Part shown: piece by piece, positions 5,771-63,943 of the stretch
How positions within the stretch are numbered: the stretch's first letter is position 1
How the letters are laid out: each line of letters begins with the position of its first letter
IMG/VR virus record: IMGVR_UViG_3300017917_003727
Origin: a virus
Taxonomy: Duplodnaviria > Heunggongvirae > Uroviricota > Caudoviricetes
DNA length: 64,000 nt
Strand: one strand, 5' to 3'
Made by a program: the position numbers and the translations under genes
Notes under the pieces: model-generated
Told to the model about the DNA's origin: nothing
What the model saw: the letters and a program-made list of their open reading frames with translations, nothing else
Database searches by the model: none

Positions 5771-6001
5771 TTGTATATTTTTAATATGCAAGAATCACAA
5801 ATGAAAATCGACTTAAGGGAACAACCTTCAGTTAAGTGTGAAAAATGTGAGAGTCTTTTTTTTGAAGAAGTCACAATGATTAAAAAAGTTTCACGACTTA
5901 TGACAGGTTCCCCTCAGGACACTATTGTCCCTTTTCCAACTTACAGATGCGCGGATTGTAAACATATTAACGAAGAATTTAAGATATTTGATGATAAATA
6001 A
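5771..6001 (+). CDS. Small zinc-ribbon protein
   Basis: CEKCE ... CADCKH pairs of CxxC. Confidence 0.4.
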   Translation: MYIFNMQESQMKIDLREQPSVKCEKCESLFFEEVTMIKKVSRLMTGSPQDTIVPFPTYRCADCKHINEEFKIFDDK

Positions 6002-7809: not shown

Positions 7810-8016
7810 ATGCCAGTTTCAAGAAATAGAAAAAATCACAAAAAGAAAGTTGCACAAAGGAACAAGCAACACAAACAACAAGTTAAAAAAGCTCAAGAGT
7901 TATACAATCAAAAAATAATTGAGCATTTAAAACAAATGCACGAAGAATACGTAAAGTCATCAGGTGATACCGAAAACAATGGACCTGTTCAATCCACCCC
8001 TAACACCGAACTATAA
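7810..8016 (+). CDS. Small highly basic protein
   Basis: 68 aa, rich in K/R/H/Q; possible nucleic-acid binding. Confidence 0.35.
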   Translation: MPVSRNRKNHKKKVAQRNKQHKQQVKKAQELYNQKIIEHLKQMHEEYVKSSGDTENNGPVQSTPNTEL

Positions 8017-8020
8017 GTAC

Positions 8021-10909: not shown

Positions 10910-11449
10910 ATGAATAAACAAAGAAAAGAAACAGTAGGGACCAAGTATTTACTAATTGGTTTTGGGGATTTCAAAGGAAATCAGAAACTAATAACACAAT
11001 TATTCAATCAATTCACACCCATACTTTCATCTAGTTTCCTAAAATTTCATTTTGGTGATGATTATGTGATTGCTCATTTTGAAACAGAAGAAACTCAAAA
11101 AAACGTGAGAGAATTTTGTAATATGGTATTACAAAACACAATTTGTAATTTTATTTTACTTCCACACAATAAAAATGTCATGGTTTCGTTACCAAAAGAA
11201 CTTCAAGACTTTTTATTCAATTTAGACCAACAAGACCAAATAATTACTGACAATTTGTCTGATAATGTTGAGGAAGAAGACGAAAGAGATTTTATGGAAC
11301 AATTGTTGGAAAAATTAAATACACCAAAAACACAAGAAGAAACAAAATTGTCGCTCGACGAACTACTAGATAAAATTCAACAAAAAGGTATTGACCAACT
11401 AACACAGAAAGAAAAACAACAACTATATGACTATTCAAAAGGAATCTAA
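10910..11449 (+). CDS. Hypothetical protein with acidic C-terminus
   Basis: 179-aa ORF immediately upstream of and overlapping the sigma factor gene. Confidence 0.4.
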   Translation: MNKQRKETVGTKYLLIGFGDFKGNQKLITQLFNQFTPILSSSFLKFHFGDDYVIAHFETEETQKNVREFCNMVLQNTICNFILLPHNKNVMVSLPKELQDFLFNLDQQDQIITDNLSDNVEEEDERDFMEQLLEKLNTPKTQEETKLSLDELLDKIQQKGIDQLTQKEKQQLYDYSKGI

Positions 11450-12248
11450 AACAATCACCAAAAACACTGGCATTATTAATCAGGAAGAAATATCATCTTA
11501 TCTGAAAGACATTCGTAAACTAAAAGTTATGACTGTCGATAGAGAAAAAGAACTATCTGAAAAAATGTTATCAGGTACTTGTACTGAAAAAGAAAAACAA
11601 GAAATATATTCCGAGTTACTCGAAGGTAATTTACGTTTTGTAATCACAGTTGCAAAACAATACCAAAATCAGGGATTGGATTTACCTGATTTGATTGCTG
11701 AGGGTAATTTAGGATTGATGAAAGCAATTCATAATTTTGATTGGACCAAAAAACTTAGATTTATCTCCTACGCAGTTTGGTGGGTTAAACAATCAATTCT
11801 CCAATCTCTTAATGAGAACGCAAGAACTATTCGACTTCCCGTAAACGTAGTTCAAGAATTACACAGGGCAAAAAAAGAACTTGAAAAGGGTATTACAGAA
11901 CTTGATGATAAGTTTGCAATGTTACCAACAACGGTAAATTTAGAGTCTACAATAAATGAAGACGGTGACACTCTTTTAGACATGATTGAGAATCCAAACG
12001 CAATTATGCCTGATGAAGGATTGAATAGTCAAGACAAGTTGAAAGACAAACTATTATCCATCATGAACATATTGGATGATAGAGAGAAAGTCATTGTTGA
12101 AGATTATTTTGGTTTAACTGGTACACCAAGAACTTTGGAAGATATCGGTGAAGACTTCAATCTTACCAAAGAAAGAGTTAGACAAATTAAGGAAAAAGCA
12201 TTACGTAAACTACGTAACGAATCATCTACACTATTTGATTATTTATAA
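11427..12248 (+). CDS. RNA polymerase sigma-70 family factor
   Basis: Region 2 (DLIAEGNLGLMKAIHNFD ... FISYAVWWVKQSI) and region 4 (TLEDIGEDFNLTKERVRQIKEKALRKLR) signatures. Confidence 0.75.
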   Translation: MTIQKESKTITKNTGIINQEEISSYLKDIRKLKVMTVDREKELSEKMLSGTCTEKEKQEIYSELLEGNLRFVITVAKQYQNQGLDLPDLIAEGNLGLMKAIHNFDWTKKLRFISYAVWWVKQSILQSLNENARTIRLPVNVVQELHRAKKELEKGITELDDKFAMLPTTVNLESTINEDGDTLLDMIENPNAIMPDEGLNSQDKLKDKLLSIMNILDDREKVIVEDYFGLTGTPRTLEDIGEDFNLTKERVRQIKEKALRKLRNESSTLFDYL

Positions 12249-18966: not shown

Positions 18967-19585
18967 TAGACTGTCTGTAAAGTTTTTTCTTATCAAAACC
19001 ATTATCTTCTAATAATTTATATAGGTATTTTCTATGTACCGTATTTGAATCACTAACAAAGATAGCGTCAGCTCTTTTTTTATCAATCATATAATTTTGT
19101 AATACTGAAATGAATCTTTTAGATTCATTTTTGTTTTTTAACGAGAAAAGATTAACCAAATCATCATTCTGAACTACAACTTTGTTATTGACTGTAAAAA
19201 TGTTTTTTAAACCAGAGGTATTAACATACTTTAAACAAAACTCTTCAAAATCTATTCTTTTGTTTTGTTTCCAATCAAATATTTTTTCAGGTAAATTATA
19301 TTTTTGTAGTCTTATAATTTTATAATCTGAGTCCGTCATTTCTATTTTTACGTTTCTACCCATATCATCTTGTTTAAAAAGTACCATTTGAGTGTCATCC
19401 AAAACAGATATTATTGATATTTCATATGTAACTTTATTGGCGTTTTCAACAACTACTTCAAACTGTACCTTGTTAGATTCGTCAATACATTTGTTAAAAA
19501 ACAATTCCGCCTTATTTTTTCTTACAAAAGATTTGATGATTTTTTTTCTTTTCTTATTTTTAAACAATACAACCAAATAGTTCAT
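18944..19585 (-). CDS. Hypothetical protein
   Basis: 213-aa minus-strand ORF abutting the dnaJ start. Confidence 0.4.
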
Positions 19586-20576
19586 GTCTAAAGATTACTA
19601 TAAAATATTAGGAGTTAAAGAGAATGCCTCTCAAGAAGAAATAAAAAAGGCATATAGAAACCTATCTAAAAAATATCACCCAGACGTAAATCCTGAGGGT
19701 AAAGAGATGTTTCAAAACATTTCAGAAGCTTACGAGAATGTTGGAGACCCAAAAAAAAGAGAACAATATGATTTCAATAGAAATAATCCTTTTGCCAATA
19801 GCGGACCTGATTTAGGTGATTTATTTGACCTATTTAACAGAGGACAGAATCCTTTTTCACAAAGAAGAAGACAGAACGCTCCTGATAAAGTTGTTATTCT
19901 AAACTTAACACCATTTGAGTCATACTTAGGAGTTACAAAAGATTTGACATATCAAAGAAAAGAATCGTGTAAGATTTGTAATGGTCAAGGGGGTGAAAGG
20001 ATGACTTGTAACACTTGTCACGGTAGAGGTGTATTACAACAACAATTTGAATTTGGGGGTGCAATACACATTCAAAACACCAACTGCCCATCTTGTAGAG
20101 CCAACGGTTATGTTTTGACTCAAGTTTGTTATAATTGTTCGGGTCATGGCTCGAAAACTAATCTTCATAAAATTACCGTTGATATTCCTAAGTCAGTTGA
20201 TGATGGGGATTTTCTTAGAATACCAAATTCTGGAGATTTTACAACTAATGTTGGAATTGGAGATTTAGTCGTACAAATAAAATTAATTAACGATGGTGTT
20301 TATCAAAAAATAGGTCAAAATTTGTACATGAATTATAAATTGGCACCAGAGTCTTTCTTTATTAAGGATGATATAAAACTTGAACACCCTGATGGAACCT
20401 TAATGGTAAAGTTCCCACAAAACTTCAACACGGTAACACCAATAAGATTACGAGGTAAGGGATTTCAAATCGGTCAAAACTACGGTGATTTTATAATCAA
20501 GTTTGAAATAGACGGCTCACTGAGTACACTAAATGAAGAAAAAATTAGTAAAATTATAGAAACATTAAAAGAATGA
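19584..20576 (+). CDS. dnaJ: DnaJ-like co-chaperone (J domain plus CxxCxGxG zinc-finger domain)
   Basis: DYYKILGV ... YHPDVNP (HPD motif) J domain; CKICNGQG / CNTCHGRG / CPSCRANG / CYNCSGHG repeats. Confidence 0.75.
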
Positions 20577-33215: not shown

Positions 33216-34409
33216 ATGTTAACAAAATTAGAATACGTTTGGTTAGACGGTTATACACCTGAACCAAACCTCAGAAGTAAAGTAAAAGTATGTAGACTTG
33301 ACAGTTGGAGTGTTGAAAGATTGCCCGAATGGTCCTTTGATGGTTCATCAACGAAACAAGCTGAAGGACACTTTTCAGATTGTATTTTGAAACCTGTGAG
33401 AGTTTACGAAAATCCATTAAACAAAGGTACAATTCGTTCTTTGTTGGTACTATGTGAGGTAATGAATCCCGATGGTACGCCACACAGTACAAACACAAGA
33501 GCTAAAATTGGTGAAGAGCAAGAAGATTTGTGGTTTGGTTTTGAACAAGAATATACCATTATGAAAGATGGTAGACCATTGGGTTTCCCTGATAATGGAT
33601 ACCCTGAACCACAAGGTAAATACTATTGTGGCGTTGGTAATGGACAGGTTCATGGTCGTGAGTTTGTAGATAAACACATGGAGTATTGTATCAAAGCGAA
33701 CATTGATATTACAGGTACAAACGCTGAAGTTCTTTTAGGTCAGTGGGAATACCAAGTATTTTCAAAGGGTAAACTTAAAGCTGGAGACGACCTATGGGTG
33801 TCAAGATACATTCTTCAACAAATGTCAGAAGATTACGGATTTAAAATTGAGTTCCATCCAAAACCTGTTCAAGGTGATTGGAATGGTTCAGGACTACATT
33901 GTAACTTCTCAAACAATAGAATGAGAAATGAGGGTGGTGAAGAATACTTCAAAAACATATTTAGAGCTTTTGATGTTAGACATGAATTACACATTGAAAA
34001 TTATGGTTCAGATAATCATCTTCGTTTAACTGGTAAACATGAAACCCAATCAATCGATAAATTCAGTTGGGGGGTTTCAGACAGAGGTTCGTCAATAAGA
34101 GTTCCATTGTCAACAGCTAAAGAGTGGAAAGGATATGTCGAAGACCGCAGACCAGCATCAAATGGTGACCCATATAAAATCGTTAATGTAATTTCAAGTT
34201 CTATTGAGTTTGCAGAAGTATTAGACAAAACAAATTCAAACATTACTAACAACATAGATTTGTTAAATATCTCTAAAAAATACGGTACTTTAACTGATGA
34301 AGAACTTTTGGCGGAATTTGTAAAAGATACTGAATTTGATATGAGTGAAACCATGGCCCACACCAATGAAACAATAACTGAAATTAAGTTTAATCCTGAA
34401 AATAATTAA
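33216..34409 (+). CDS. Glutamine synthetase type II (eukaryote-like GlnII) homologue with C-terminal extension
   Basis: EYVWLDG...LRSKVKV N-terminus, GKYYCGVGNGQVHGREFVDKH, TGTNAEVLLGQWEYQV, FHPKPVQGDWNGSGLHCNFS blocks align to GS-II catalytic motifs. Confidence 0.7.
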   Translation: MLTKLEYVWLDGYTPEPNLRSKVKVCRLDSWSVERLPEWSFDGSSTKQAEGHFSDCILKPVRVYENPLNKGTIRSLLVLCEVMNPDGTPHSTNTRAKIGEEQEDLWFGFEQEYTIMKDGRPLGFPDNGYPEPQGKYYCGVGNGQVHGREFVDKHMEYCIKANIDITGTNAEVLLGQWEYQVFSKGKLKAGDDLWVSRYILQQMSEDYGFKIEFHPKPVQGDWNGSGLHCNFSNNRMRNEGGEEYFKNIFRAFDVRHELHIENYGSDNHLRLTGKHETQSIDKFSWGVSDRGSSIRVPLSTAKEWKGYVEDRRPASNGDPYKIVNVISSSIEFAEVLDKTNSNITNNIDLLNISKKYGTLTDEELLAEFVKDTEFDMSETMAHTNETITEIKFNPENN

Positions 34410-47999: not shown

Positions 48000-49013
48000 A
48001 TGGAAAGAAAATTAGCAACAATCAGGATTATTACGGACATCAGACCTATTGAAGGTGCTGATAAGATTGAACTTGCCAGTGTTGGCGGTTGGAATGTTGT
48101 TGTTGCCAAAGATGTTGGACATAAGGTTAACGATATGGTAATTTATTGTGAGATTGATTCTTTTCTTCCAATTAGAGAAGAGTTTGAATTCTTACGTAAA
48201 TCGTCTTACAAGAAAATGGGTGACCAAGAAGGTTTCCGTCTGAAAACTATTAAACTTCGTGGTCAGGTTTCTCAGGGACTTATTCTTCCTATTCACGTTT
48301 TACCTTTGGGTGAAATGGTTCACGAAGGTCAGGATGTAACCGAAATGTTGGGTATTGTTAAATATGAACCACCAATTCCTGCAGAACTTGCTGGTAAAGT
48401 TAAAGGTCAGTTCCCATCATTCTTACAAAAGACCGATGAAGAAAGGGTTCAAAACTTGGTTGGTGAATATGAGAAATATAAATTAACTTCTTCTCATCAG
48501 TTTTATGTTACTGAAAAACTTGATGGTTCATCCTCAACATTCTACATCAAAGATGGTGAGTTCGGTGTATGTTCTCGTAATTTAGAATTACTTGAAACGG
48601 AAGGTAACACGTTTTGGAAAGTAGCTCGTGAAATGAACTTGGAAGAAAAACTTAAATCAACAGGTAAAAACATTTGTTTACAAGGTGAACTGATTGGTGA
48701 AGGCATTCAAGGAAATCCATACAAGATTAAAGGTCATAGAGTTATGTTCTTCAACGCCTTTGATATTGATAAACACCAAAGAATGACCATGCCTCAGTTC
48801 TTAGAACTTATGGAAAGTTTAGAACTCCAACACGTACCATGTTTAGAATTACCTTTCTTGTTACCAAGTACAGTTGAAGGTATGTTAAAATATGCTGAGG
48901 GAACATCTGTACTTAACAGACAGACTGAAAGGGAAGGTGTTGTAGTAAGGTCTTACGATAATAAGATTAGTTTCAAAGCAATTTCTAACAAATTTTTGTT
49001 GGAGGAAAAATAA
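48000..49013 (+). CDS. ATP-dependent RNA ligase, Rnl5-like (N-terminal OB-like domain plus nucleotidyltransferase)
   Basis: KxDG motif I (VTEKLDGSSSTFY) and N-terminal IRII...ADKIELASVGGWNVVV domain as in DraRnl/NgrRnl-type ligases. Confidence 0.55.
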   Translation: MERKLATIRIITDIRPIEGADKIELASVGGWNVVVAKDVGHKVNDMVIYCEIDSFLPIREEFEFLRKSSYKKMGDQEGFRLKTIKLRGQVSQGLILPIHVLPLGEMVHEGQDVTEMLGIVKYEPPIPAELAGKVKGQFPSFLQKTDEERVQNLVGEYEKYKLTSSHQFYVTEKLDGSSSTFYIKDGEFGVCSRNLELLETEGNTFWKVAREMNLEEKLKSTGKNICLQGELIGEGIQGNPYKIKGHRVMFFNAFDIDKHQRMTMPQFLELMESLELQHVPCLELPFLLPSTVEGMLKYAEGTSVLNRQTEREGVVVRSYDNKISFKAISNKFLLEEK

Positions 49014-49666: not shown

Positions 49667-49851
49667 GACCTTGTGGTTGTTGTCAGTGTGTAAGTTTTTA
49701 TAGGTATCCACCTATTTACATCATTCTACTAGACATGTGATATTTGAAACTGATACGTATTCAACATTCAGAAGTTCAACAGGTCAACAGATTCATTCCT
49801 CAATAACCTCAAAACTCTTTTGGAATAATTTATAACACGGACAGCCACAGA

Positions 49852-49878
49852 CCCTCACCCAAAAGGTGGGGGTTTTTT
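49852..49878 (+). terminator. Rho-independent terminator, 'CCCTCAC...GTGGGGG' family copy 1
   Basis: CCCTCACC-caaaa-GGTGGGGG then T6. Confidence 0.65.
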
Positions 49879-49928: not shown

Positions 49929-50453
49929 ATGAAAAGAATGACAATTGACAACACCCACTCAGAGATTGGGTTTAAAGTAAGACATCTTATGATTTCAACA
50001 GTTAAAGGTAATTTTAATACTTTTTCTGGTGGAATACAAGAAGACGGAAACGTATTTGTATCCATAAACGTTGGTTCAATCAATACAGGTAACGTAGACC
50101 GAGATAATCATCTTAAGTCTGCCGATTTCTTCAACTCTGAAGAATACCCTACAATTAATTTTGGAGGTAAGATGAGTGAAGACATGTCTACTGTTACAGG
50201 TGAGATTACAATCAAAGGGATAACCAAAGAAGTTACACTTAACACCGAATATAACGGTATGGGTGTTGACCCTTGGGGAAACACAAAGCACGGATGGGAA
50301 ATTACAGGTTCAATCAACCGTAATGATTTTGGTCTTACATGGAACGCTCCACTTGAAACAGGTGGTGTATTGTTAAGTGAAGAAGTTAAACTTAGCATTG
50401 ACGTTCAGATGGTAGAAGTTGTGGAAGAAATGGCTGTAGAATCAGCTGAATAA
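49929..50453 (+). CDS. YceI-family protein (moron-like insert)
   Basis: YceI-like blocks (FKVRHLMISTVKGNF, SINTGNVDRDNHLKSADFF, RNDFGLTWN); own promoter and terminators on both sides. Confidence 0.6.
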   Translation: MKRMTIDNTHSEIGFKVRHLMISTVKGNFNTFSGGIQEDGNVFVSINVGSINTGNVDRDNHLKSADFFNSEEYPTINFGGKMSEDMSTVTGEITIKGITKEVTLNTEYNGMGVDPWGNTKHGWEITGSINRNDFGLTWNAPLETGGVLLSEEVKLSIDVQMVEVVEEMAVESAE

Positions 50454-50477
50454 TCTTCACTCAATTAAAACATTAAA

Positions 50478-50504
50478 ACCCTCACTCAAAAGGTGGGGGT
50501 TTTT
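50478..50504 (+). terminator. Rho-independent terminator, family copy 2
   Basis: CCCTCAC-tcaaaa-GGTGGGGG then T5. Confidence 0.65.
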
Positions 50505-50775: not shown

Positions 50776-53007
50776 ATGTCATTACTATACATAGCACTAT
50801 TCAACCTAATACCAGGTCCGATAGACACAGCAAAAGCTGAAACCATTGGTCAAGTTACCGTCAAGGCTTCGTCAAAAAAAGAAACAGTATCTTCTGTAAT
50901 TAATATTCAAAGAAAGAGTTTAACAATAATGGATGCAGTGTCATCCGAATCAATTAAAAAAACACCTGACAGAACAATTGGGGATGTTTTAAAAAGAGTT
51001 GGTGGTACATCAATACAAAATGATAAGTTTGTAGTTGTTAGGGGTCTTGCTGATAGATACAATTCGGTTTTAGTAAATGGTTCAATCATAGGTTCAACAG
51101 AACCTGATAGGAAATCATTTTCATTTGATTTAATACCATCAAATACAATTGATAATTTAGTTGTTTACAAAACCGCATCACCTGATTTACCTGGTGATTT
51201 TTCAGGTGGAGTAATAAAACTAACAACTAAAGTGGTAGACTCAAAATCAAAATCATTTGATTTTGGATTAGGATATGGAACGTTAAGTTCTTTTAGAAAT
51301 TCTTGGCAAATATCATCATATGTTTTACCTAATAATTTTTTAACTACCAAAGAATTTAGAGCATTATCAAGTGAGGCAAGACACGTAGAGTCACAAAAAA
51401 TAACACAATCTTTTAACCCAACACAAGGATTTAATATCCCTAATTTGACTCTTGTTTATAATCAGGGTAACATGACCAAAAAGTTTTCTTATTTGACAAA
51501 TTTTACATTAAGAAATTCACATAATATTACCACAACACAAAGAAAAGATTATATGTCGGGTAATGATTTAATGTATGATTATACCGACAAGATTTATACT
51601 AACACAACAAGTTTTGGTGGAATTGTAAATTTGAAGTATAAAAAATATGATTTTAAAAATAATATTAATTATTTGAATGAAAATTCTATTACAAATAGAA
51701 ACGGAATTAACTTTGATAATGAACAGTTAATTACAAGTAGTAGTTCTAATCACAATAGAAAGTTTATTTTGATGTCACAATTTGTGACCCCAAAGTACTC
51801 ATTTAATTATACATTGTTACACAGAAGTCAGCCAGATTATAGAGTTAATCCATTTGCCAAGAACATCACATCAAATGGTGATAGTTCGTTTGTATGGAGA
51901 GATTCTTACAGGTTTTGGAGTACCATGAACGAACACACTTTTGGTGGTTATTACAACGATACGATTGGTAAATTCAAATATGGTTTCTACGAACAATTAA
52001 AATACAGAAATTTTGGAGCGAGAGTTTTCAGATACGAACCAAATTACATTTTAAGTGAAATTACGAACAACACCGACAAGTATAATGCATATTCTAACTT
52101 ACTTTCAGGATATGGAATGTATTCTAAAACTTATAATAAGTTTACTACATCAGGTGGAATAAGAATTGAAAATCAAATATTCAAAGTTAATACATATGAT
52201 TTTAGTGGGAGACCACAACAAGTTAATAGAAATTATCTTGATGTATTACCATCATTAAACTTAATCTATGGTGTTAGGAATAATAAAAATATTAGAGCTT
52301 CAGTTAGTAGGACAGTTGCTAGACCTGAGTTTAGAGAAGTAAGTAATTTCTCTTTCTATGACTTTGTTAGAAACGCACAAGTAATTGGAAACCCAAAGTT
52401 ATTAAGAACACAAATAACTAATATTGATTTAAGATACGAGATATATCCATCATCAAAAGAAATTATCACATTCTCAACATTCTATAAAAAATTTACAAAT
52501 CCAATTGAACAAATTGTTGATAATGGTTCGGTACCAAGCAACTTAATTTTAACATTATCTAACCCTAAACAAGCAACAATATACGGTGGAGAATTGGAAA
52601 TAAGGAAATCAATTAATAACAATTTCACAATATATTCCAACTTGTCTTATTTTAAATCTGAAGTTAATATTCAAGGGAGAACAAGACAATTGCAAGGACA
52701 ATCACCATACATTATCAACACAGGATTGTATTATACAAAAGGAAAGTACTCTGTTAATATGTTCTATAATAGAATTGGAGAAAGAATATCGGCAGTAGGA
52801 TTTCAAGGGTATCCCGACATTTATGAAAATGCAAGGGATGTAATTGACTTGACAATTCAATACCAAACAAAGAAGATATCAATTAAATTTGGTGTGTCAG
52901 ACTTGTTAGGGCAATACTCAAAGTTTTATCAAAATAATCAAAATAGAACATTAATTAAAACAAATAACGAACAAACAATAAATCTAAATATAAATTACAA
53001 ATTATGA
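50776..53007 (+). CDS. TonB-dependent receptor-like outer-membrane protein (plug plus beta-barrel)
   Basis: Plug-domain blocks (VRGLADRYNSVLVNGS, RKSFSFDLIPS, VYKTASPDLPGDFSGGVIKLTTK); long Y/N/T-rich barrel-like remainder; atypical N- and C-termini. Confidence 0.55.
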   Translation: MSLLYIALFNLIPGPIDTAKAETIGQVTVKASSKKETVSSVINIQRKSLTIMDAVSSESIKKTPDRTIGDVLKRVGGTSIQNDKFVVVRGLADRYNSVLVNGSIIGSTEPDRKSFSFDLIPSNTIDNLVVYKTASPDLPGDFSGGVIKLTTKVVDSKSKSFDFGLGYGTLSSFRNSWQISSYVLPNNFLTTKEFRALSSEARHVESQKITQSFNPTQGFNIPNLTLVYNQGNMTKKFSYLTNFTLRNSHNITTTQRKDYMSGNDLMYDYTDKIYTNTTSFGGIVNLKYKKYDFKNNINYLNENSITNRNGINFDNEQLITSSSSNHNRKFILMSQFVTPKYSFNYTLLHRSQPDYRVNPFAKNITSNGDSSFVWRDSYRFWSTMNEHTFGGYYNDTIGKFKYGFYEQLKYRNFGARVFRYEPNYILSEITNNTDKYNAYSNLLSGYGMYSKTYNKFTTSGGIRIENQIFKVNTYDFSGRPQQVNRNYLDVLPSLNLIYGVRNNKNIRASVSRTVARPEFREVSNFSFYDFVRNAQVIGNPKLLRTQITNIDLRYEIYPSSKEIITFSTFYKKFTNPIEQIVDNGSVPSNLILTLSNPKQATIYGGELEIRKSINNNFTIYSNLSYFKSEVNIQGRTRQLQGQSPYIINTGLYYTKGKYSVNMFYNRIGERISAVGFQGYPDIYENARDVIDLTIQYQTKKISIKFGVSDLLGQYSKFYQNNQNRTLIKTNNEQTINLNINYKL

Positions 53008-54224
53008 AAAAATTGATTCCATTTATCATGGTATTATTATTGGGTTTGGGTTCATGTAAACCCGAAGAACCAATAGTTCCAACTGCAAACACTGAACTTG
53101 TTGGAACATTAACTGAAAACAAAACTTTAACTGCGGACAAAGTTTGGAGTCTTAAAGGTTATGTTTATGTACCTGAAGGTATTACATTAACTATTGAAGC
53201 GGGAACCAAAATTGTTAGTGACGTTACTGAAAAAGGTGCATTGTGTATTGAAAGAGGTGCTAAAATTTATGCTAATGGAACTGCGGACCAACCAATTATT
53301 TTTACATCAGGACAGTCTTCACCAAAACCTGGTGATTGGGGTGGATTGATAATTTTAGGAAACGCTCCAACTAATAAACCAAATCCAACAATTGAAGGTG
53401 GTGTAGGTAGACCCTATGGTGGTGTTGATGAAAGTGACAACAGTGGTGTGTTAAAGTATGTAAGAGTTGAATACGCTGGTATCGCGGCATTTCCTGGTTC
53501 TGAAATTAACGCATTCACATTTGGTGGTGTAGGAAAAGGAACTGTAGTTGATTACTGTGAATCTTACTACGCTAATGATGACGCATTTGAATTCTTTGGT
53601 GGTAATGTAAACTGTTCACATTTAGTGGCTGTTGGAACTGCTGATGATGATTATGATTTTGACTTTGGATATACAGGTACAATAAAATTTGCAATATCAA
53701 AAAGAGACCCATTATTTGTTGATATGGCAGATGCGGGTAATGGTATTGAGTGTGATAATGATGGTACTGGTTCCGTTGCAATTCCAATAACAAAACCTAA
53801 TTTACAAAATTTCACTCTTATTGGTCCTATAGAGTCAACATCTTTATCAAATCACAACTTAGCAATGAGATGGAGAAGAGGAACTGCATTTAATGTTCAA
53901 TATTCTATTTTCTATGGATACATGAAAGGTGGTTTTAGTATTGAATCTGACATCACCGCAGGGTATTTTAATACAGGTATGAGTACAATGTTCAATAATT
54001 ACATATCATCTGTGGATACCGTAAATACAATAAAAACAAGTTCAACATTATTAACAAAAGAAAACATGTTAGCTCTTTGTAGTAAACAAGGAACAATAAT
54101 AACAAGCTCACAAGTTAAACCTTTTGATAATAATTTCCAAACAATTTCAAGTGTGGTAAATGGACAGTGGGGAGCAATCCCTTCGGGTTCCTCAATTTGG
54201 ACTTTGGGTTGGACAAAATTTTAA
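53004..54224 (+). CDS. Lipoprotein, beta-helix-like
   Basis: Signal plus lipobox (LLLGLGSC); G/T/N-rich repetitive beta-strand composition. Confidence 0.45.
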   Translation: MKKLIPFIMVLLLGLGSCKPEEPIVPTANTELVGTLTENKTLTADKVWSLKGYVYVPEGITLTIEAGTKIVSDVTEKGALCIERGAKIYANGTADQPIIFTSGQSSPKPGDWGGLIILGNAPTNKPNPTIEGGVGRPYGGVDESDNSGVLKYVRVEYAGIAAFPGSEINAFTFGGVGKGTVVDYCESYYANDDAFEFFGGNVNCSHLVAVGTADDDYDFDFGYTGTIKFAISKRDPLFVDMADAGNGIECDNDGTGSVAIPITKPNLQNFTLIGPIESTSLSNHNLAMRWRRGTAFNVQYSIFYGYMKGGFSIESDITAGYFNTGMSTMFNNYISSVDTVNTIKTSSTLLTKENMLALCSKQGTIITSSQVKPFDNNFQTISSVVNGQWGAIPSGSSIWTLGWTKF

Positions 54225-54383: not shown

Positions 54384-55214
54384 ATGAAAAACACAGAAAT
54401 ATATAACGAACTAGTACAGAAGATGAGAGAATTCTTCTTAAAGAGAAATTTCAAAGAAGTTCCTACACAAAGTAGACTATCAATCTTGGCGGCTTGTGAA
54501 AACCCACATTCAGTAAAAACATTTGAATATGGTGGATTACAATGGCCATTACCACAAACAGGCCAAATGTGGTTGGAACATGAACTATTAAAAAACCCTG
54601 AATGGGACGGAGTATTTTGTATTTCAACTTCTTACAGGGAAGAAAAAAATCCAATTGAAGGAAGACACGAAATGATATTCCCAATGTTTGAATTCGAATC
54701 AAAAGGAACTATGAGAGAACTTCACCAACTTGAAGTTAGATTACTTGAACATTTAGGTTTTGAAACACCAGCAATTTGTAAATACGATGATGTTTGTCAA
54801 GAGTATGGTGGTGTTGAAATACTTGAAAACGAACATGAACAAAGAATGTGGGAAGAAAAAGGACCTGTAGTTTCATTACAAAACTTTCCATTAAGAACAA
54901 ACCCATTTTGGAATATGAAACATGGTGGAAATAACATTTATAATAAAATTGATGTTATTCTTTACGGTCAAGAAACAATTGGTTCTGCAGAGAGAAGTTG
55001 TGATGTTGAAGAAATGAAAAACAATTTTTACACAATTGAAAATGGTGCTTACTGTGCAAAGTTGTTTGAATTGTTTGGAAAAGAAAGAGTAGAGAAAGAA
55101 CTTGAAGAATTCTTATCGCTTAATTTCTTCCCGAGATTTGGTGGAGGTATTGGAATGACAAGAATGGCTCGGGCTTACGAATTGATGAAACAAGAACAAC
55201 TACAGATGGTGTAA
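54384..55214 (+). CDS. Class II aminoacyl-tRNA-synthetase-like ligase (AsnA/aspartate-ammonia-ligase-like or EpmA-like)
   Basis: Motif 2 YREEKNPIEGRHEMIFPMFEFE and motif 3 GGGIGMTRM of the class II core; no anticodon-binding domain. Confidence 0.5.
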   Translation: MKNTEIYNELVQKMREFFLKRNFKEVPTQSRLSILAACENPHSVKTFEYGGLQWPLPQTGQMWLEHELLKNPEWDGVFCISTSYREEKNPIEGRHEMIFPMFEFESKGTMRELHQLEVRLLEHLGFETPAICKYDDVCQEYGGVEILENEHEQRMWEEKGPVVSLQNFPLRTNPFWNMKHGGNNIYNKIDVILYGQETIGSAERSCDVEEMKNNFYTIENGAYCAKLFELFGKERVEKELEEFLSLNFFPRFGGGIGMTRMARAYELMKQEQLQMV

Positions 55215-55222
55215 AAATAACA

Positions 55223-55249
55223 AACCCTCACTTAACGGTGGGGGTTTTT
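55223..55249 (+). terminator. Rho-independent terminator, family copy 3
   Basis: CCCTCAC-ttaac-GGTGGGGG then T6. Confidence 0.65.
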
Positions 55250-55259
55250 TATTTAAAAA

Positions 55260-56132
55260 ATGTTTCTTACACTTACCAAAACTATTATGAGTAGGTTAGA
55301 AAAAATAAAGGAACAACACCCTGAGTTGAATGTTACAATCATTGACTTGTTGGCAAGTATGGACCCAACTGATTCATACAAATACTTGGAGTTTTTGGTA
55401 AAAAGACTCAAAGATTATTATCAAGAAGAAAAGGAACAATTAGGTTTACACATTGCCATTGATTTGATAGGTACTGAAAACACCAAGACACTTAATGAGT
55501 ATGAAAAACATTGTAAAGCCAACAGGATTGAGAAAAATGATATAACTCAAATTAAGACTTGGCAAGAAATGAAAAGTGAGGTTAAAAAAGCCGAAGCAAT
55601 TGAAGAACAGAAAAAGAATGAGAAACAAATAAAGAAAATTTTTGAAAATGAAAATTACAAAATTTTAATTCCTCTTTCTTATGAAGCTTGTAAGATTTAT
55701 GGTTCAAATACAAAATGGTGTATAACACAAAAAAGTCATTGGGACACATATTCCAAAAGCTATAACATCTTATTTGTAATTGATAAATTATCAAATAAAA
55801 AATACGCCATTTCAAGAAAGAAAGGTGAACAGACAATTGATGCTTGGGATGAAAAGGATGTTCAAATGAGTCCTTTATTGTTGAAACTTCCACATGAAAT
55901 TATGGATAAGATTGTTGAGACAATATCAAAGGAAAAAACTATTGTTGAAATGGCTAAAAACTTAGTTAAGAAAGAAGAACCAAAACAAAAAAAGATGGAC
56001 GATTATCTACCTTATTTCAACCCAAATAATAGTATCTATTATGATGAAAATCTTATTGGTGAGTTATTTTCAAAATGGATAGACTCAAGTAAAATTCCTA
56101 CAAGTTATTTTTACACTAAAGGAGACGAATAA
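55260..56132 (+). CDS. Hypothetical protein: 'TKWC' paralog domain plus K/E-rich N-terminal region
   Basis: EACKIYGSNTKWCIT...Y...LFVIDK block shared with ORFs 21807 and 28977. Confidence 0.45.
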   Translation: MFLTLTKTIMSRLEKIKEQHPELNVTIIDLLASMDPTDSYKYLEFLVKRLKDYYQEEKEQLGLHIAIDLIGTENTKTLNEYEKHCKANRIEKNDITQIKTWQEMKSEVKKAEAIEEQKKNEKQIKKIFENENYKILIPLSYEACKIYGSNTKWCITQKSHWDTYSKSYNILFVIDKLSNKKYAISRKKGEQTIDAWDEKDVQMSPLLLKLPHEIMDKIVETISKEKTIVEMAKNLVKKEEPKQKKMDDYLPYFNPNNSIYYDENLIGELFSKWIDSSKIPTSYFYTKGDE

Positions 56133-56133
56133 T

Positions 56134-56508
56134 ATGAAATTTGCACTTATAGCACACGACGGAAAAAAGGCGGACATGGTTGCCTTTGTAATGAAAAGAT
56201 TAGAATTCTTCAACAGGGAAGATGTTGAAATATATGCTACAGGAACAACAGGTAAAAGAATTGTTCATGCTGGTGTTGAAAAGGTTGTAACCCTAAACTC
56301 AGGACCAATGGGTGGTGATGCGGAAATTGGAGCCATGGTTGCCAAAGGTGAATTGGAAGGAGTAATATTCTTCAGGGACCCACTTGATAAACACCCACAT
56401 GAACCCGATGTTCAAATGCTAATGAGACTATGTGATGTCCACGATGTACCACTAGCAACAAACTATAAAAGTGGACATATTATGGTTAAGTATTACTCAG
56501 AAAAATAA
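56134..56508 (+). CDS. mgsA: Methylglyoxal synthase
   Basis: FALIAHDGKK, YATGTTG, SGPMGGD, VIFFRDPL...PHEPDV blocks align closely to bacterial MgsA. Confidence 0.7.
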   Translation: MKFALIAHDGKKADMVAFVMKRLEFFNREDVEIYATGTTGKRIVHAGVEKVVTLNSGPMGGDAEIGAMVAKGELEGVIFFRDPLDKHPHEPDVQMLMRLCDVHDVPLATNYKSGHIMVKYYSEK

Positions 56509-56514
56509 AATCAT

Positions 56515-56907
56515 ATGAAAACAAAAATATATTTCAAAGGAGAATTTGAGGGATATGGTGTTGTCATATCTTGGGATAAAAGTAGGAATGATAAAAAGTA
56601 TCAAAATTTTTCATTTAGTAGAGTTCCATCAGCCCGTGAGAATGGATACAAGACAAGAGAATTGAGTTACAATCAAATTGCTGGTGGACAATACACAACC
56701 AAAGAAATCACAAGATACCTTGTAACAGGTTCGTTTGGTTCTTGGATTACTCACAAAACTGAATTGATGGATGAATTTGAAAAAGTAATTAATATTTGTG
56801 TTGACGAATTTATAAAAGATGTCAACAATGAATATTCACTTGACGGAATGATTGGAAGAATATTTATACAACCTTTTGAGAAATTTTTTGACTGGTTAAA
56901 AAAATAA
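56515..56907 (+). CDS. Hypothetical protein
   Basis: 130-aa ORF. Confidence 0.4.
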   Translation: MKTKIYFKGEFEGYGVVISWDKSRNDKKYQNFSFSRVPSARENGYKTRELSYNQIAGGQYTTKEITRYLVTGSFGSWITHKTELMDEFEKVINICVDEFIKDVNNEYSLDGMIGRIFIQPFEKFFDWLKK

Positions 56908-56918
56908 TTGTATATTTG
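56888..56918 (+). promoter_or_regulatory. Promoter TTGACT-N17-TATATTTG, ATG 4 nt downstream
   Basis: Conserved module; overlaps the end of the upstream gene. Confidence 0.45.
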
Positions 56919-56922
56919 CAAC

Positions 56923-57198
56923 ATGATTAAACTATTTAAAGAAAAATTTTTACAGTTGGATTTTGGTATTCAGATGATAATAGTTACACTAACTATTTTA
57001 ATATCAAATCAACTATTGTCCTTCACAACTAAGTTGATGAATTATTCCGACACGTTCGCATTTAATACTGGTCTCATTCTAACCTTTACTTTATTTGTAT
57101 TCCAAGCTTTATTCATATTTTTGGGTATAAAGTCAGTGATAAATTACATAAGAAAAACAAAACAAAATAATATAAATAACAATGAGCAATCTAACTAA
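56923..57198 (+). CDS. Small membrane protein
   Basis: ATG 56923 (ORF-track 56908 is a TTG); three hydrophobic helices. Confidence 0.4.
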   Translation: MIKLFKEKFLQLDFGIQMIIVTLTILISNQLLSFTTKLMNYSDTFAFNTGLILTFTLFVFQALFIFLGIKSVINYIRKTKQNNINNNEQSN

Positions 57199-58048
57199 AT
57201 TCTTGCTTGGACTATCAGTTGTAGTCCTTATGATTTTCAGTTTCACGGGATGTGAGCGTATCGACGCTGGTCACGTTGGAGTAAAAGTAAACCTTTATGG
57301 TAACGGAAAAGGCGTTGATGATGTGACAGAAGTTACTGGTTGGGTATTTTATAACCCAATTTCAACAAAAATTGTTGAGTTTCCAACCTATGTTCAACAC
57401 AAAGAATACAAAGCGATTATGGAAGACGGAAAAGTTGTATCTGACGAATCTTTTGTAATCAACTCAAAAGACGGTTCCGAGTTTCATGTTTCACCACTTC
57501 TTAACTATTCAGTTAAACGTGAAAAAGTTCCTTACATTTTCAACAAATACCGTGTAACACTCGGACAAATTGAAGAAGGATTTCTTAAAACTGCAGTATA
57601 CGATGCGTTTCGTGTTGTTGCTAACTCATATACTGCCGATGAATTGATATCTAATCGTGAATTATTTGAAATAAAAGTAAGAAAAAACCTTGAGGAACAC
57701 CTTGCACCCGAGGGATTTGTCTTGGCACAATTTACTTCTAATCTTGTTTATCCCACTACGTTTAAAAATGCGATTGAAGCTAAGAATAACGCAGTTCAAA
57801 AAGCTTTGACCGCTGAGAATGAAGTTAAAACTGCTGAGGCTCAGGCAAGGATTAAAGTGGCAACCGCAGAAGGTGAAGCGAAGGCGATGTTAACATCCGC
57901 AAAGGCTGAAGCTGAATCTAACAGGTTGAGACAACAAACATTGACACCACTTCTTCTACAACAAATGTGGATTGAAAAATGGAATGGTGGTCTTCCATCC
58001 ACGATGCTGGGTCAAGGACAAAATTTAATGTTCGGACTTAATAAGTAA
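57182..58048 (+). CDS. SPFH/band-7 (prohibitin/HflK-C-like) lipoprotein
   Basis: Lipobox FSFTGC; SPFH core with C-terminal Ala/Glu-rich coiled coil. Confidence 0.6.
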   Translation: MSNLTKFLLGLSVVVLMIFSFTGCERIDAGHVGVKVNLYGNGKGVDDVTEVTGWVFYNPISTKIVEFPTYVQHKEYKAIMEDGKVVSDESFVINSKDGSEFHVSPLLNYSVKREKVPYIFNKYRVTLGQIEEGFLKTAVYDAFRVVANSYTADELISNRELFEIKVRKNLEEHLAPEGFVLAQFTSNLVYPTTFKNAIEAKNNAVQKALTAENEVKTAEAQARIKVATAEGEAKAMLTSAKAEAESNRLRQQTLTPLLLQQMWIEKWNGGLPSTMLGQGQNLMFGLNK

Positions 58049-58058
58049 GACTAACAAA

Positions 58059-58086
58059 ACCCTCACAGAAATGTGGGGGTTTTTTA
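58059..58086 (+). terminator. Rho-independent terminator, family copy 4
   Basis: CCCTCAC-agaaat-GTGGGGG then T6. Confidence 0.65.
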
Positions 58087-59511: not shown

Positions 59512-59637
59512 ATGTGGGAGTTAATAATCATAAACAAAGACGACAAAGGTTATTTAGTTCAGGCACCAAATGGTGATACACATTGGATGTCAAAACAGGA
59601 CTATCAAAAGTATTTAGAAAAAATCAATAAAAATTAA
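59512..59637 (+). CDS. Small hypothetical protein (41 aa)
   Basis: ATG 59512 within ORF-track 59392; the upstream part overlaps the previous CDS. Confidence 0.25.
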
Positions 59638-60608
59638 TGTACGGCAATTCTAATCTTGATAAAGATTTTGTGGTTGATGATGACCTAATTAAACTTGCCG
59701 AGTTCGAAGCAAGAATCGCTGCGGGTGATAAGATTGAGCCAAAAGATTGGATGCCGAAAGAATATAGAAAACAACTTATCAGGATGATTGAACAACACGC
59801 TCATTCTGAAATTATTGGTTCTTTACCTGAAGGGACTTGGATTACAAGAGCACCAGGTTTTAGAAGAAAATTAGCATTGATGGCTAAAGTTCAGGACGAA
59901 GTCGGACATGCACAATTATTATATTCCGCAGCTGAAACATTGGGTAAAAGAAGAGAAGATATGGTTAATGATTTAATCAATGGCAAATCAAAATATTCAA
60001 ATGTCTTCAACTATCCAGCAAAGACTTGGGCTGATACCGCAATTATAGGTTGGTTAATTGATGCTGCGGCAATAGTTAATCAATTAGCAAACTCAAAAGG
60101 TTCATATGGTCCTTATTGTAGGGCTTTGGAAAGGATATGTTATGAGGAAAGTTTTCACCTAAAACAAGGTCATAGTAATTCTGTATACTTGGCAACAGGA
60201 ACAGAAAAACAAAGAGAGATGGTTCAAGATGCACTTAATCGTTGGTGGAAACCTGTGATACATTTCTTTGGACCACCTGATTCACAGTCAGTTCATTCAG
60301 AAAAGTTAATAAAATGGAAAGTTAAGATGATGACTAACGACCAAATGAGATTTCAATTCTTTGATATGTATGTCCCAAAGATTAGAGAATTAGGATTAGT
60401 AATCCCTGATGAAAAATTAAAAAGAAATGAAGATGGTACTTGGGATTACTCAGACCCTGATTGGAACGAATTCAAAGAAGTAATCAAAGGAAACGGACCA
60501 TGTAATAAAGAAAGATTGGCGGTTAGAAGGATGGCAGAAGAAAGAGGTAGATGGGTTAGAAAAGCTTTACTAAATAAAGATACTAATTATGTTACACCAC
60601 TAGCATGA
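59637..60608 (+). CDS. PaaA-like ferritin-fold di-iron protein (phenylacetyl-CoA epoxidase subunit A family)
   Basis: [25 protein letters not shown]...[13 protein letters not shown] di-iron carboxylate motifs. Confidence 0.55.
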
Positions 60609-60943
60609 ACGAAATTTTTACAATTACAGAAGCGGCTGAAAAACAATTAAAAAAATTAATGAGTGAAGATAAAAAAGTAACTCAGGAACACTTCCTTAGA
60701 GTTGGTGTAAAAGGTGGTGGGTGTTCAGGATTATCTTATGAATTAGCATTTGATAACTTAGAACAAGATGGTGATAATATTTTTGAAACTAACAATATTA
60801 AAGTTCATATAGATAAAAAATCATTCTTATACCTTTTTGGTACTGAACTTGATTTTACTGACGGATTAAACGGTAAAGGTTTTCAATTTATTAATCCAAA
60901 TGCAACAAGAACTTGCGGATGCGGTGAAAGTTTTGCTATTTAA
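60605..60943 (+). CDS. A-type iron-sulfur carrier (IscA/SufA/ErpA, HesB family)
   Basis: C-terminal CGCGESF motif and the upstream Cys. Confidence 0.6.
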
Positions 60944-62050: not shown

Positions 62051-63943
62051 ATGAAAAAAAACTTATTATTATTTTTGACTTTTGCAATGTCCATGCTTGG
62101 ATATTCGCAGACGTGTCCCACACCAACCACGTCGGGAGTTCACATCACGTTAGATTCTACCTATAAAATCGGGACTTATAGGTCGGGTAAAACGAGTGTC
62201 GGATTGTGTTTTTACAATAGCACATCTGAAAAAATCACAGCAGCACAATACAGAGTATTTTACGACAAATCTGCATTTGCTGGCGTAGACACTATAAAAA
62301 CAAAAAACTCATCATTCTCACAGTATCTTCAGTATGTAGATAATCCATCAGGTGGATTTGTAACTATTACAATTACTTACACTGGTACAAATTCGAGTTT
62401 CAATATTCCAAACGGAGCTTTGTTTGAAATTGTATTCAAACATACTTCAGCACTTGCAACAACTTATTTCTCACCAACTGATATGACATTTAATGGTGGT
62501 TCATCTTTTAGTCAAACAGCAACCAACCAAGCGGGTAACGACTACACTTTGACACTAACAAATTTCGGTGGTAAATTCGAGAAACAAAAAATGTCTTACA
62601 AGGGTAAATTTGTTAACGTTCAAGGCTCAGCAGCTAAAAACCTAACAGTATCTTTGGAAAAGAAATTGAAATCAGGTGGAAGTTGGAGTTATGTTCAAAC
62701 ATCGGTTACAAACACATCAGGTAGATTTAATTTTACAGATGTTGAAATCGATACAACTGCTTGGAATGTAAGAATTGCGGTTAAAGGTGATACTATGGGT
62801 GTAGGTTCTATTGTGTCTGTATCAGATGCTCAAAGAATCAACCAATACGTATTAGGAACTCAAACACCAACAGGATTTGATTTCTACACTTCAGATGCTA
62901 ACGGAGATGATAAGATTACAATATCAGACGTTTATAGTGTTTACGGTAGAGTTGGTGGAAGATTCACAGCATTCCCTAATTCAGTTCAAGACGTATTGTT
63001 CTTCACTGAATCTGAATACAACACAATTAATAATTCATCTACAAACTATACTTCAACAATTCAAGGTGTAACTAATTTTACATTTGATATTATTGCAGGT
63101 CAACCTGACTCAGTAACATATTATGTTGTATGTCCTGGTGATGCTAATGGAACAGGTTATCACATGGCTCGTATGATTCCTATTGAAATTGTAAATCCAA
63201 ATAATGCTCACAAACACATTATTGATGTTACAACTCACTACGACGACGAGACACTTAAGACTATTGAAGTTAACTATCCTAAATTAGGTGTTGATGCTGA
63301 AGACGTAGTTTCTATTCCTGTTAAAGTTAAAACAAACGGTATTGAATTAGGTTCATTACAATTGAGTATGAAATACGATTCTACCCTGTTAACATTTAAA
63401 GGTGTGAAAAATGAAAGTAAAACTTCTTATTGGATTTCTTTTGTTAACCCATCTGAAGGTGTTGTTGAGTGGGGTGGTTACGACCCTACAAATAACAAAC
63501 ACTTAATGAAAGATGGTGAGATGTTTTTTACTTTAGAATTCACCGCAAAGAAACCACAAAATGATTGGGGTAAAAGTCCTTTATATGTGACAAGAAAATT
63601 TGCTGGTAATGCATCCGCAACTGATTTAGTTATTACACCAACTGATGGAATTATTCAAGTTTTCAGAATGTCAGGACCAACCAACTTCAAAGATTTGGGA
63701 TTAAGTCCAAACCCTTCAGATAAAACAATGTACTTTACATTTAAAGTATATCAAGATGGTAAAACATCAATTAGTTTATACGACTTGATTGGTAAAGAAC
63801 AAGTAAAAGTAGTTGAAGGTTATTACCCTGTTGGAATCTACACAGAACCTAAAGACATCTCAATGTTATCACCAGGTATGTACTTGGCAATTTTGAGAAC
63901 TGAAGAGAAAGTGGTAGTAAAAAAAGCAATTAAAAACAATTAA
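62051..63943 (+). CDS. Secreted protein with type IX secretion system C-terminal sorting domain
   Basis: N-terminal signal peptide; C-terminal ~80 aa matches the Por/T9SS CTD pattern (KTSISLYDLIGKEQ...GMYLAILRTEEKVVVKKAIK). Confidence 0.6.
   Translation: MKKNLLLFLTFAMSMLGYSQTCPTPTTSGVHITLDSTYKIGTYRSGKTSVGLCFYNSTSEKITAAQYRVFYDKSAFAGVDTIKTKNSSFSQYLQYVDNPSGGFVTITITYTGTNSSFNIPNGALFEIVFKHTSALATTYFSPTDMTFNGGSSFSQTATNQAGNDYTLTLTNFGGKFEKQKMSYKGKFVNVQGSAAKNLTVSLEKKLKSGGSWSYVQTSVTNTSGRFNFTDVEIDTTAWNVRIAVKGDTMGVGSIVSVSDAQRINQYVLGTQTPTGFDFYTSDANGDDKITISDVYSVYGRVGGRFTAFPNSVQDVLFFTESEYNTINNSSTNYTSTIQGVTNFTFDIIAGQPDSVTYYVVCPGDANGTGYHMARMIPIEIVNPNNAHKHIIDVTTHYDDETLKTIEVNYPKLGVDAEDVVSIPVKVKTNGIELGSLQLSMKYDSTLLTFKGVKNESKTSYWISFVNPSEGVVEWGGYDPTNNKHLMKDGEMFFTLEFTAKKPQNDWGKSPLYVTRKFAGNASATDLVITPTDGIIQVFRMSGPTNFKDLGLSPNPSDKTMYFTFKVYQDGKTSISLYDLIGKEQVKVVEGYYPVGIYTEPKDISMLSPGMYLAILRTEEKVVVKKAIKNN

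Follow-up and report, generated by a model that had tools for sequence, protein, structure and literature searches.

A predicted short-form methylglyoxal synthase encoded by a lineage of large uncultured phages, and its possible part in infection

Methylglyoxal synthase (MgsA) converts dihydroxyacetone phosphate (DHAP) to methylglyoxal and inorganic phosphate (Pi). Methylglyoxal damages guanine in DNA and the arginine, lysine and cysteine residues of proteins (PMC5790435), and the question is therefore why a virus should carry a gene for an enzyme that makes it. This question is raised by the 64,000-nucleotide stretch of DNA IMGVR_UViG_3300017917_003727 (hereafter the window), a virus record assigned to Caudoviricetes. 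Here, an open reading frame (ORF) on the plus strand, running from ATG to TAA at 56134..56508 with the stop codon included, encodes a product of 124 amino acids (aa) which an initial annotation, made from the sequence alone, had called a phage methylglyoxal synthase. From the comparisons described below, the ORF very probably encodes a canonical and active MgsA of the short form, carried by a phage. The best explanation overall for its presence, to which we would give a probability of about one half, is that the phage-borne enzyme boosts the methylglyoxal bypass of the host.

Family assignment and active site

The identification as MgsA was borne out by profile models, by sequence matches in the PDB, by the active site and by the predicted fold. 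The motifs on which it had originally been based are all found in the translation, namely AHDGKK (residues 7-12), YATGTTG (34-40), SGPMGGD (56-62) and FFRDPL...HPHEPDV (79-93). The protein matches the NCBIfam equivalog model NF003559, 'methylglyoxal synthase', with 150.3 bits against a cutoff of 84 (E 2.8e-44), and the Pfam family MGS (PF02142) with 56.8 bits against a cutoff of 24.1. When the PDB was searched by sequence, all 11 matches obtained were methylglyoxal synthases, with E-values ranging from 1e-34 to 5.5e-22: the Borrelia (8U2V) and Thermus (2X8W, 2XW6) enzymes gave values of about 1e-34, the Bacillus subtilis enzyme (6F2C) 7e-33 and the Escherichia coli enzyme (1B93) 3e-24. Identity to the solved MgsA proteins of Thermus, Bacillus and Borrelia is 48-53%, and a BLASTP comparison with E. 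coli MgsA gave 40% identity (E 3e-32); the residue numbers of the E. coli sequence used for this comparison agree with those published for the active site.

The fold was evaluated with an AlphaFold2 monomer model (pLDDT 84.9); MgsA enzymes are homohexamers (PDB 1B93, 6F2C). In a Foldseek search of the PDB with this model, the top 26 chains were all MgsA (TM 0.79-0.85, E 6e-13 to 5e-7, 39-53% identity), and the MGS-like domains of carbamoyl phosphate synthetase (CPS) appeared from rank 27 onward, with E-values of about 1e-4 (2.6e-4 or weaker) and 16-18% identity. A domain of this kind, the allosteric domain at the C-terminus of CarB, had been named at the outset as the assignment that could replace MgsA. 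It belongs to the same superfamily, PF02142, and has the same general fold, but it is non-catalytic, while the phage protein has the full catalytic set; the candidate is ruled out both by the sequence search, in which every PDB match was an MgsA, and by the structural ranking.

E. coli MgsA (152 aa; 1B93, 1EGH) has the same fold as the phage protein, and all of its 12 active-site residues are common to both. In the alignment, the catalytic residues H8 and D9 and the phosphoryl-binding K12 (codons 56155-57, 56158-60 and 56167-69) correspond to H19, D20 and K23 of the E. coli enzyme; the further phosphoryl-binding residues T36, T38, T39 and S56-G57 (56239-41, 56245-47, 56248-50 and 56299-304) to T45, T47, T48 and S65-G66; and the other catalytic residues D62, D82, H89 and D92 (56317-19, 56377-79, 56398-400 and 56407-09, all on the plus strand) to D71, which is the catalytic base, D91, H98 and D101. 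The two positions that the initial annotation had singled out for checking, Asp71 and His98 of E. coli, are therefore both kept, together with all the other active-site residues. In 83 sequences of the phage clade described in the next section the catalytic and phosphoryl-binding residues are invariant, with the exception of T38, which is kept in 80 of the 83. The catalytic D62, H89, H8, D9, D82 and D92 are also invariant in a 13-sequence alignment of phage and bacterial proteins. Since the phosphoryl-binding site is intact, we predict that ordinary inhibition by Pi should persist and that activity should be confined to conditions of low Pi.

Compared with the long form of E. coli, the phage MgsA lacks about 25 C-terminal residues, its sequence stopping about 6 residues beyond the counterpart of E. 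coli residue 128, and it has a two-residue insertion after helix 1. The tail arginine of the E. coli enzyme, which we take to be Arg150, is thus not present, and the Thermus and Bacteroidota enzymes are likewise without the tail. In E. coli, a salt bridge links an arginine of the 10-residue C-terminal segment to Asp20 of the adjacent subunit, and this arginine transmits phosphate allostery and makes the response to phosphate more cooperative; the tail-less Thermus enzyme is still cooperative towards phosphate but less so, with a Hill coefficient (nH) of 1.5 that becomes 1.99 when the tail is added (PMC4133812). The MgsA proteins encoded in Bacteroidota genomes are equally short (122-127 aa). 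The phage protein is therefore like these Bacteroidota enzymes and the synthases of Thermus sp. GH5 and T. thermophilus (2X8W, 2XW6, 1WO8) in its length class, its active-site residues and the absence of a tail. It differs from the short-form bacterial enzymes in being phage-encoded and in belonging to a clade of its own, no member of which is more than 66% identical to any non-clade sequence examined. It differs also in the residues R22 and Y111, which are fixed in the clade and occur in none of 79 genome-encoded relatives, and in the motif GGDAE, where the aligned bacterial sequences have GGDAQ or GGDQQ.

A clade of phage-encoded sequences

In IMG/VR, 184-205 viral contigs encode an MgsA of this clade, and many of these contigs are 100-310 kb long. 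The related contigs were viewed only within +/-10 kb of mgsA, and the neighbourhood counts given here and below rest on 80 listed loci, among which the identity of the clade MgsA is 66-92%. The window shares its synteny with a JGI contig of 63.7 kb (L170), whose MgsA is 99% identical. In another locus (L074) the clade gene, whose product is 76% identical, lies less than 1 kb from a gene for a major head protein (phrog_138, E 4.7e-67); the closest cultured relatives of this capsid protein are those of Mel-JY01 and the immuto phages (41% identity), and more distantly it matches over 2,500 phage records, for the most part of Escherichia, Synechococcus and Klebsiella phages. Elsewhere mgsA stands beside genes for thymidylate synthase, ribonucleotide reductase, helicase and endolysin, or beside CobS/CobT-like and RecA/UvsX-like genes. 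One sequence of the clade comes from the Tara collection.

The window itself has the features of a phage genome. Its GC content is uniform at about 31%, and its ORFs are mostly small and co-oriented, most of them without a Pfam match (44 Pfam families were matched over 92 ORFs); a tRNA scan of the window found none. PHROG matches were obtained for a DNA primase (3954-4877), an exonuclease (4877-5662), SbcD (5925-6773), SbcC (7964-10345), a sigma factor (11427-12248) and an RNA ligase (48000-49013), and also for two DNA methyltransferases and a ParB-like protein. The closest cultured relatives of the primase are in Flavobacterium phage vB_FspM_immuto (160 kb, 35% identity) and Microcystis phage Mel-JY01. 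No match was found when the part of the window from 45 to 64 kb was compared by megablast with 50,697 phage records, which indicates that this phage has no close cultured relative. Concerning the host, a protein of 630 aa ending in a type IX secretion system (T9SS) C-terminal sorting domain (Por_Secre_tail; 62051-63943, plus strand) and a TonB-dependent receptor, described below, fit a member of the Bacteroidota. There is strong support for regarding the carriers as a lineage of large phages, T4-related and myovirus-like, with a Bacteroidota host.

In 185,579 bacterial and archaeal species genomes (GTDB, one genome for each species) no MgsA of the clade was found apart from a single match, and the best non-clade matches had at most 63% identity. 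The exception (L087; JALRIY010000437.1) is a contig of only 780 bp from a metagenome-assembled genome (MAG) of Algoriphagus sp., with 75% identity. It is probably phage DNA that was binned with the MAG, and it might hint at an Algoriphagus-like host. In the cultured-phage records of INPHARED, searched by tblastn, no clade member was found; the search returned 22 unannotated and mostly fragmentary records with a non-clade MgsA (32-49% identity), named 'Listeria phage', 'Enterococcus phage' or, from the human gut, 'Bacteriophage sp.' (e.g. OR848172.1, OR846812.1, OR846639.1 and MT835478.1), which we suspect to be host DNA, although they may also be independent captures. The phage MgsA matched none of the PHROG families, and its structural model had no match among the BFVD viral structures at E <=1e-3. 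We also observed an ENA contig of 1,438 bp (P0121) with a predicted protein of 303 aa in which two stretches match MGS, 77% identical to the protein of the window; a tandem duplication or a fusion may account for this, or else an artefact of gene calling.

The carriage of mgsA by a phage, supposed from the start, is upheld by the phage-type replication genes, the syntenic 63.7-kb contig, the approximately 205 IMG/VR contigs and the clade member adjacent to a capsid gene. The initial annotation had further considered the gene an unusual auxiliary metabolic gene (AMG). This is correct as far as cultured phages, PHROGs and BFVD are concerned, from which it is absent, but in uncultured large aquatic phages the gene is recurrent, and viral mgsA is already in three AMG tables, those of a Lake Baikal virome (PMC8066274), a deep-sea brine pool (PMC11252502) and plastisphere viromes (PMC12397222). 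The catalogued genes are also on viral contigs, and their likeness to the present one is by annotation only; the catalogues file mgsA under propanoate or methane metabolism, without a residue check, phylogeny, selection analysis or mechanism. A literature search found no dedicated study of a phage-borne methylglyoxal synthase. The enzyme itself is ordinary, and what seems new is an under-described phage-specific clade of an AMG that had already been catalogued.

The closest genome-encoded MgsA proteins are all from Bacteroidota, at 55-63% identity (Gabonibacter, Algoriphagus, Cecembia, Saprospiraceae and Flavobacteriales), and outside this phylum the closest named relatives are from Bacillaceae (52-54%). 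In a neighbour-joining tree, 54 distinct sequences from phage contigs were separated by one split from 79 genome-encoded relatives and E. coli, with a bootstrap of 210/300. The similarity of the MgsA proteins also follows the gene-content groups of the contigs that carry them. The simplest reading would be that mgsA was captured long ago from a Bacteroidota host and has since been inherited vertically for the most part.

Selection on the gene was evaluated by the Nei-Gojobori method in 724 pairs for which dS was not saturated; the median dN/dS ratio was 0.13 and the highest 0.29. The protein is identical in five short metagenome contigs (L001, L002, L003, L005 and L006), although their dS is 0.11-0.33. 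The genomic surroundings are much more variable: the 80 loci fall into 26 gene-content groups with 46 distinct pairs of immediate neighbours, apart from MgsA, each family is confined to 20 of them at most, and MgsA keeps about 75% identity between loci that have few other genes in common. Strong purifying selection on mgsA in at least 200 uncultured aquatic phage genomes is, on these substitution patterns, a strongly supported conclusion. It is mildly surprising, and would hardly have been predicted, that large aquatic phages of at least 26 gene-content groups should retain in this way (dN/dS about 0.13) an enzyme producing a toxic electrophile.

Possible role during infection

Methylglyoxal synthases are strongly inhibited by phosphate and act under phosphate limitation or carbon excess, and their main role is considered to be the restoration of Pi (PMC5790435; PMC8600716). 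It is possible to propose on this basis that the phage enzyme adds capacity to the methylglyoxal bypass of the host during infection. With little free phosphate and an accumulation of triose phosphates, glyceraldehyde-3-phosphate dehydrogenase (GAPDH) would stall, since it needs Pi; MgsA would then strip Pi from DHAP, so that the Pi pool would be refilled for ATP and nucleotide synthesis and sugar-phosphate stress would be eased. The methylglyoxal formed would be left to host detoxification, or it would be tolerated by a cell that is soon to lyse. A phage that has to make genomes of 100-300 kb in phosphate-poor water would gain from freeing the Pi held in sugar phosphates, and glycolysis would thereby be kept running past GAPDH. 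That the physiological role is such a recycling of Pi, or overflow, during infection is a part of the proposal that we advance tentatively, at somewhat less than even odds.

A comparison can be made with pstS, phoH and phoA, which are the phosphate-economy AMGs of aquatic phages such as cyanophages and pelagiphages. The proposed logic is the same, a host-derived gene being kept for the phosphate needed in nucleotide synthesis; however, those genes work through uptake or the Pho regulon, whereas MgsA would free internal sugar-phosphate Pi, with a toxic by-product. We know of no phage in which a Pi-mobilising role has been shown for MgsA. If this role is real, it would add an internal Pi-mobilising route to those represented by pstS, phoH and phoA, and it would tie viral infection to the fluxes of methylglyoxal and D-lactate in lakes and oceans. 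The role fits the aquatic distribution of the gene, as seen in the Tara sequence and in an mgsA-bearing, T4-like scaffold of 120 kb that dominated one virome sample of Lake Baikal, an oligotrophic lake (PMC8066274); the abundance of this scaffold in a freshwater virome also fits the large T4-related carriers described here.

Several results weigh against this proposal or against the assignments on which it stands. No PhoH, PstS, glyoxalase or other detoxification gene was found among the 44 Pfam families of the window, and there is therefore no independent genomic pointer to phosphate economy or to the handling of methylglyoxal; the damage done by methylglyoxal would moreover be a cost to the phage that is not obviously outweighed. 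As regards the family, the model TIGR00160 was matched with 143.0 bits, slightly below its cutoff of 146.9, over model positions 3-120 of 143, likely because this 143-position model runs about 20 positions beyond the C-terminus of the short protein. The support for monophyly of the clade is moderate, being 70% against the genome-encoded sequences, and it falls to 70/200 (35%) when fragmentary metagenome representatives of uncertain origin are included. In addition, neither Pfam nor PHROG scans of 40 ORFs, including the largest, revealed a structural gene of the virion in the 64-kb window.

The last result could be taken to mean that the gene is not a phage gene, but lies on cellular DNA or a mis-binned element, or that it is a neutral passenger captured recently. 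The many host-like genes of the window (TonB receptor, DnaJ, glutamine-synthetase-like protein, YceI) point in the same direction, and so does the finding that the MgsA matches among cultured phages are unannotated fragments with at most 49% identity. We consider this barely credible, because the small, co-oriented and mostly Pfam-less ORFs, the replication genes matching phage families, the capsid gene adjoining a clade member, and the presence of the clade on about 205 IMG/VR contigs, together with its absence from the species genomes other than in one MAG contig, all argue for a phage; a neutral passenger is ruled out by the dN/dS of 0.13 and by dS values of up to 0.33 with no amino-acid change at all. 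A non-enzymatic, regulatory function would be compatible with the 55-63% identity to Bacteroidota MgsA and with the homohexameric state of these enzymes: the phage subunit could mix into host hexamers or bind a host regulator, switching the bypass on or off, and the clade-fixed R22 and Y111 would be candidate surface residues for such contacts. A decoy, however, would be expected to lose its catalytic residues, and every one of them is conserved throughout the clade, which makes this alternative very unlikely.

Two further alternatives take the enzyme to be active, and we hold both to be unlikely. Given that methylglyoxal is a known growth-arresting electrophile (PMC5790435), it might serve as a weapon that arrests host growth, translation and DNA replication, or that damages co-infecting or superinfecting competitors. 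This would agree with the intact and strongly conserved catalytic machinery, the lack of any detoxification gene in the window, the absence of the E. coli-type allosteric tail (PMC4133812) and the residues R22 and Y111, which could reflect altered regulation. The phage DNA, however, and the translation machinery on which the phage relies, would be hit too, and the residues that mediate inhibition by Pi are all kept. The loss of the tail is not specific to phages, because the Bacteroidota host enzymes are equally short. Moreover, no match to known defence or exclusion systems was found with PADLOC, and a literature search revealed no link between methylglyoxal production and phage takeover. The stricter version, in which the tail-less clade MgsA with its fixed R22 and Y111 would be a deregulated metabolite weapon and the AT-rich genome (31% GC) would be relatively spared guanine adducts, is a little more doubtful still; were a toxin role true, it would represent a new kind of host takeover, a metabolite-toxin strategy that has been described for no phage. 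The other alternative takes up the 'famine to feast' role that MgsA is known to have in E. coli, and sees in the phage enzyme an overflow valve that guards against sugar-phosphate overload when uptake is boosted by the phage through the TonB receptor and the lipoprotein encoded upstream. The receptor and the beta-helix lipoprotein (50776-54224) are in fact in the cassette just before the mgsA unit, with the same hairpin as a border; the order receptor, lipoprotein, AsnA-like gene, mgsA recurs in a related locus (L008); and the enzyme acts under carbon excess (PMC5790435). But a receptor or lipoprotein is found within 10 kb of mgsA in only 1-2 of the 80 loci, and such a rare association means that the link is not general and does not account for the retention of mgsA across 26 gene-content groups. 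Between a boosted host bypass, which we prefer, and these alternatives, the question is directly testable, since the gene is small and easily expressed and cultured relatives and hosts (Flavobacterium phages) exist.

Gene neighbourhood and further features of the window

An AGGAG motif resembling a Shine-Dalgarno sequence is located at 56120..56124 on the plus strand, 9 nt 5' of the mgsA ATG, and a single nucleotide separates this ATG from the stop codon of the upstream ORF (56130-56132), so that translational coupling of mgsA to that ORF is likely. In 31 related loci the start of mgsA and the upstream stop overlap by 4 nt, which is consistent with mgsA being translated within an operon. The upstream ORFs across the 80 loci belong to many unrelated families. 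In one carrier group the start of mgsA has a 4-nt overlap with a conserved ORF of about 100 aa (9705-10004 in L167, L168, L169 and L256, 9699-10004 in L254 and 9684-10004 in L255); it is absent from the window, and its product (..GSVIVVF.SN..DIAV..) looks hydrophobic and membrane-bound.

In the window mgsA is the second gene of a unit of five, all on the plus strand, whose products are a PcfJ-like protein of 290 aa, MgsA, a protein of 130 aa, a protein of about 96 aa and an SPFH lipoprotein. The PcfJ-like protein (55260..56132), whose gene adjoins mgsA, contains the motif NTKWC, and its resemblance to PcfJ is weak (E 0.0012) and does not reach the Pfam cutoff. The 130-aa protein (56515..56907) is present in the nearest strains only and has no Pfam, PHROG or PADLOC match. 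It is followed by a small protein (about 91-96 aa; 56908..57198) that is hydrophobic and probably bound to the membrane, and by the last gene of the unit (57182..58048), which encodes an SPFH/Band_7 protein with an N-terminal lipoprotein-like signal (..SFTGC) and matches phrog_200, 'lipoprotein'. The PADLOC defence models matched neither MgsA nor seven neighbouring proteins.

The unit is bordered on both sides by terminator-like hairpins on the plus strand, upstream by AAACCCTCAC-loop-GTGGGGGTTTTT at 55222..55248 and downstream by a second copy at 58056..58083, with a stem of 12 bp and a T-run. Two further copies lie at 49851-49876 and 50476-50503, also on the plus strand. This hairpin, which is rich in G+C and has a T-run after it (ACCCTCAC-loop-GTGGGGGTTTTT), is thus repeated in four copies, all within the accessory-gene region from 49.8 to 58.1 kb, with none expected by chance. 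The interval between the hairpin and the first ATG is only 11 nt long, so that no promoter can be assigned to the unit. Copies are also found in relatives, namely at 9944-9968 in L007, 9939-9963 in L008 and 9948-9970 in L010, with several in L009 and L170. In L007, L008 and L010, which are the closest relatives, the hairpin lies 30-60 nt 5' of mgsA, with no PcfJ-like gene near it and with other genes following downstream. The hairpins delimit gene cassettes of differing content between close relatives, the content of the unit varying while mgsA itself is constant, and we presume that they resemble the promoter/stem-loop (PeSL) elements that shuffle genes in the hyperplastic regions of T4-type phages.

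The initial annotation had placed mgsA in a moron cassette beside a TKWC-family protein and an SPFH lipoprotein. The gene order it gave is right, with terminator-like hairpins on either side, but the two genes are not conserved partners: the PcfJ-like/TKWC family is near mgsA in 17 of the 80 loci and SPFH in 15. A functional link of mgsA to either was rejected on these counts and because the TKWC gene is missing near mgsA in the three closest relatives.

Directly upstream of the unit, a gene at 54384-55214 (plus strand) encodes a protein of 276 aa with a class II aminoacyl-tRNA-synthetase core (phrog_29758, E 2e-95) and weak matches to AsnA, EpmA and Asp/Asn-tRNA ligases, which is kept in L008 and L010. 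It is preceded by the TonB-dependent receptor, with Plug and beta-barrel domains (743 aa; 50776-53007, plus strand), and by an overlapping gene for the lipoprotein of 406 aa with a Beta_helix_4 domain (53004-54224, plus strand). The receptor and lipoprotein pair is kept in L008 and L170 and matched no PHROG family; an outer-membrane uptake pair is unusual on a phage.

Other genes of the window are also host-like. The gene at 33216-34409 (plus strand) is a further metabolic gene of host type; its product of 397 aa resembles glutamine synthetase and has the domains Gln-synt_N and Gln-synt_C, and an exact-protein look-up of it gave no match. A full-length DnaJ, YceI, guanylate kinase, NUDIX, thioredoxin, glutaredoxin, DUF192 and HAD_SAK_2 proteins are encoded at 19584-20576, at 49929-50453 and elsewhere; the HAD_SAK_2 protein, together with the RNA ligase mentioned above, suggests RNA repair. 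Downstream of the mgsA unit, a PaaA/PaaC-family protein resembling diiron oxygenases (59637-60608, plus strand; E 6e-81) is encoded by a gene that overlaps the one for an IscA-like protein of Fe-S cluster biosynthesis (60605-60943, plus strand), and this pair is kept in L170 and L171.

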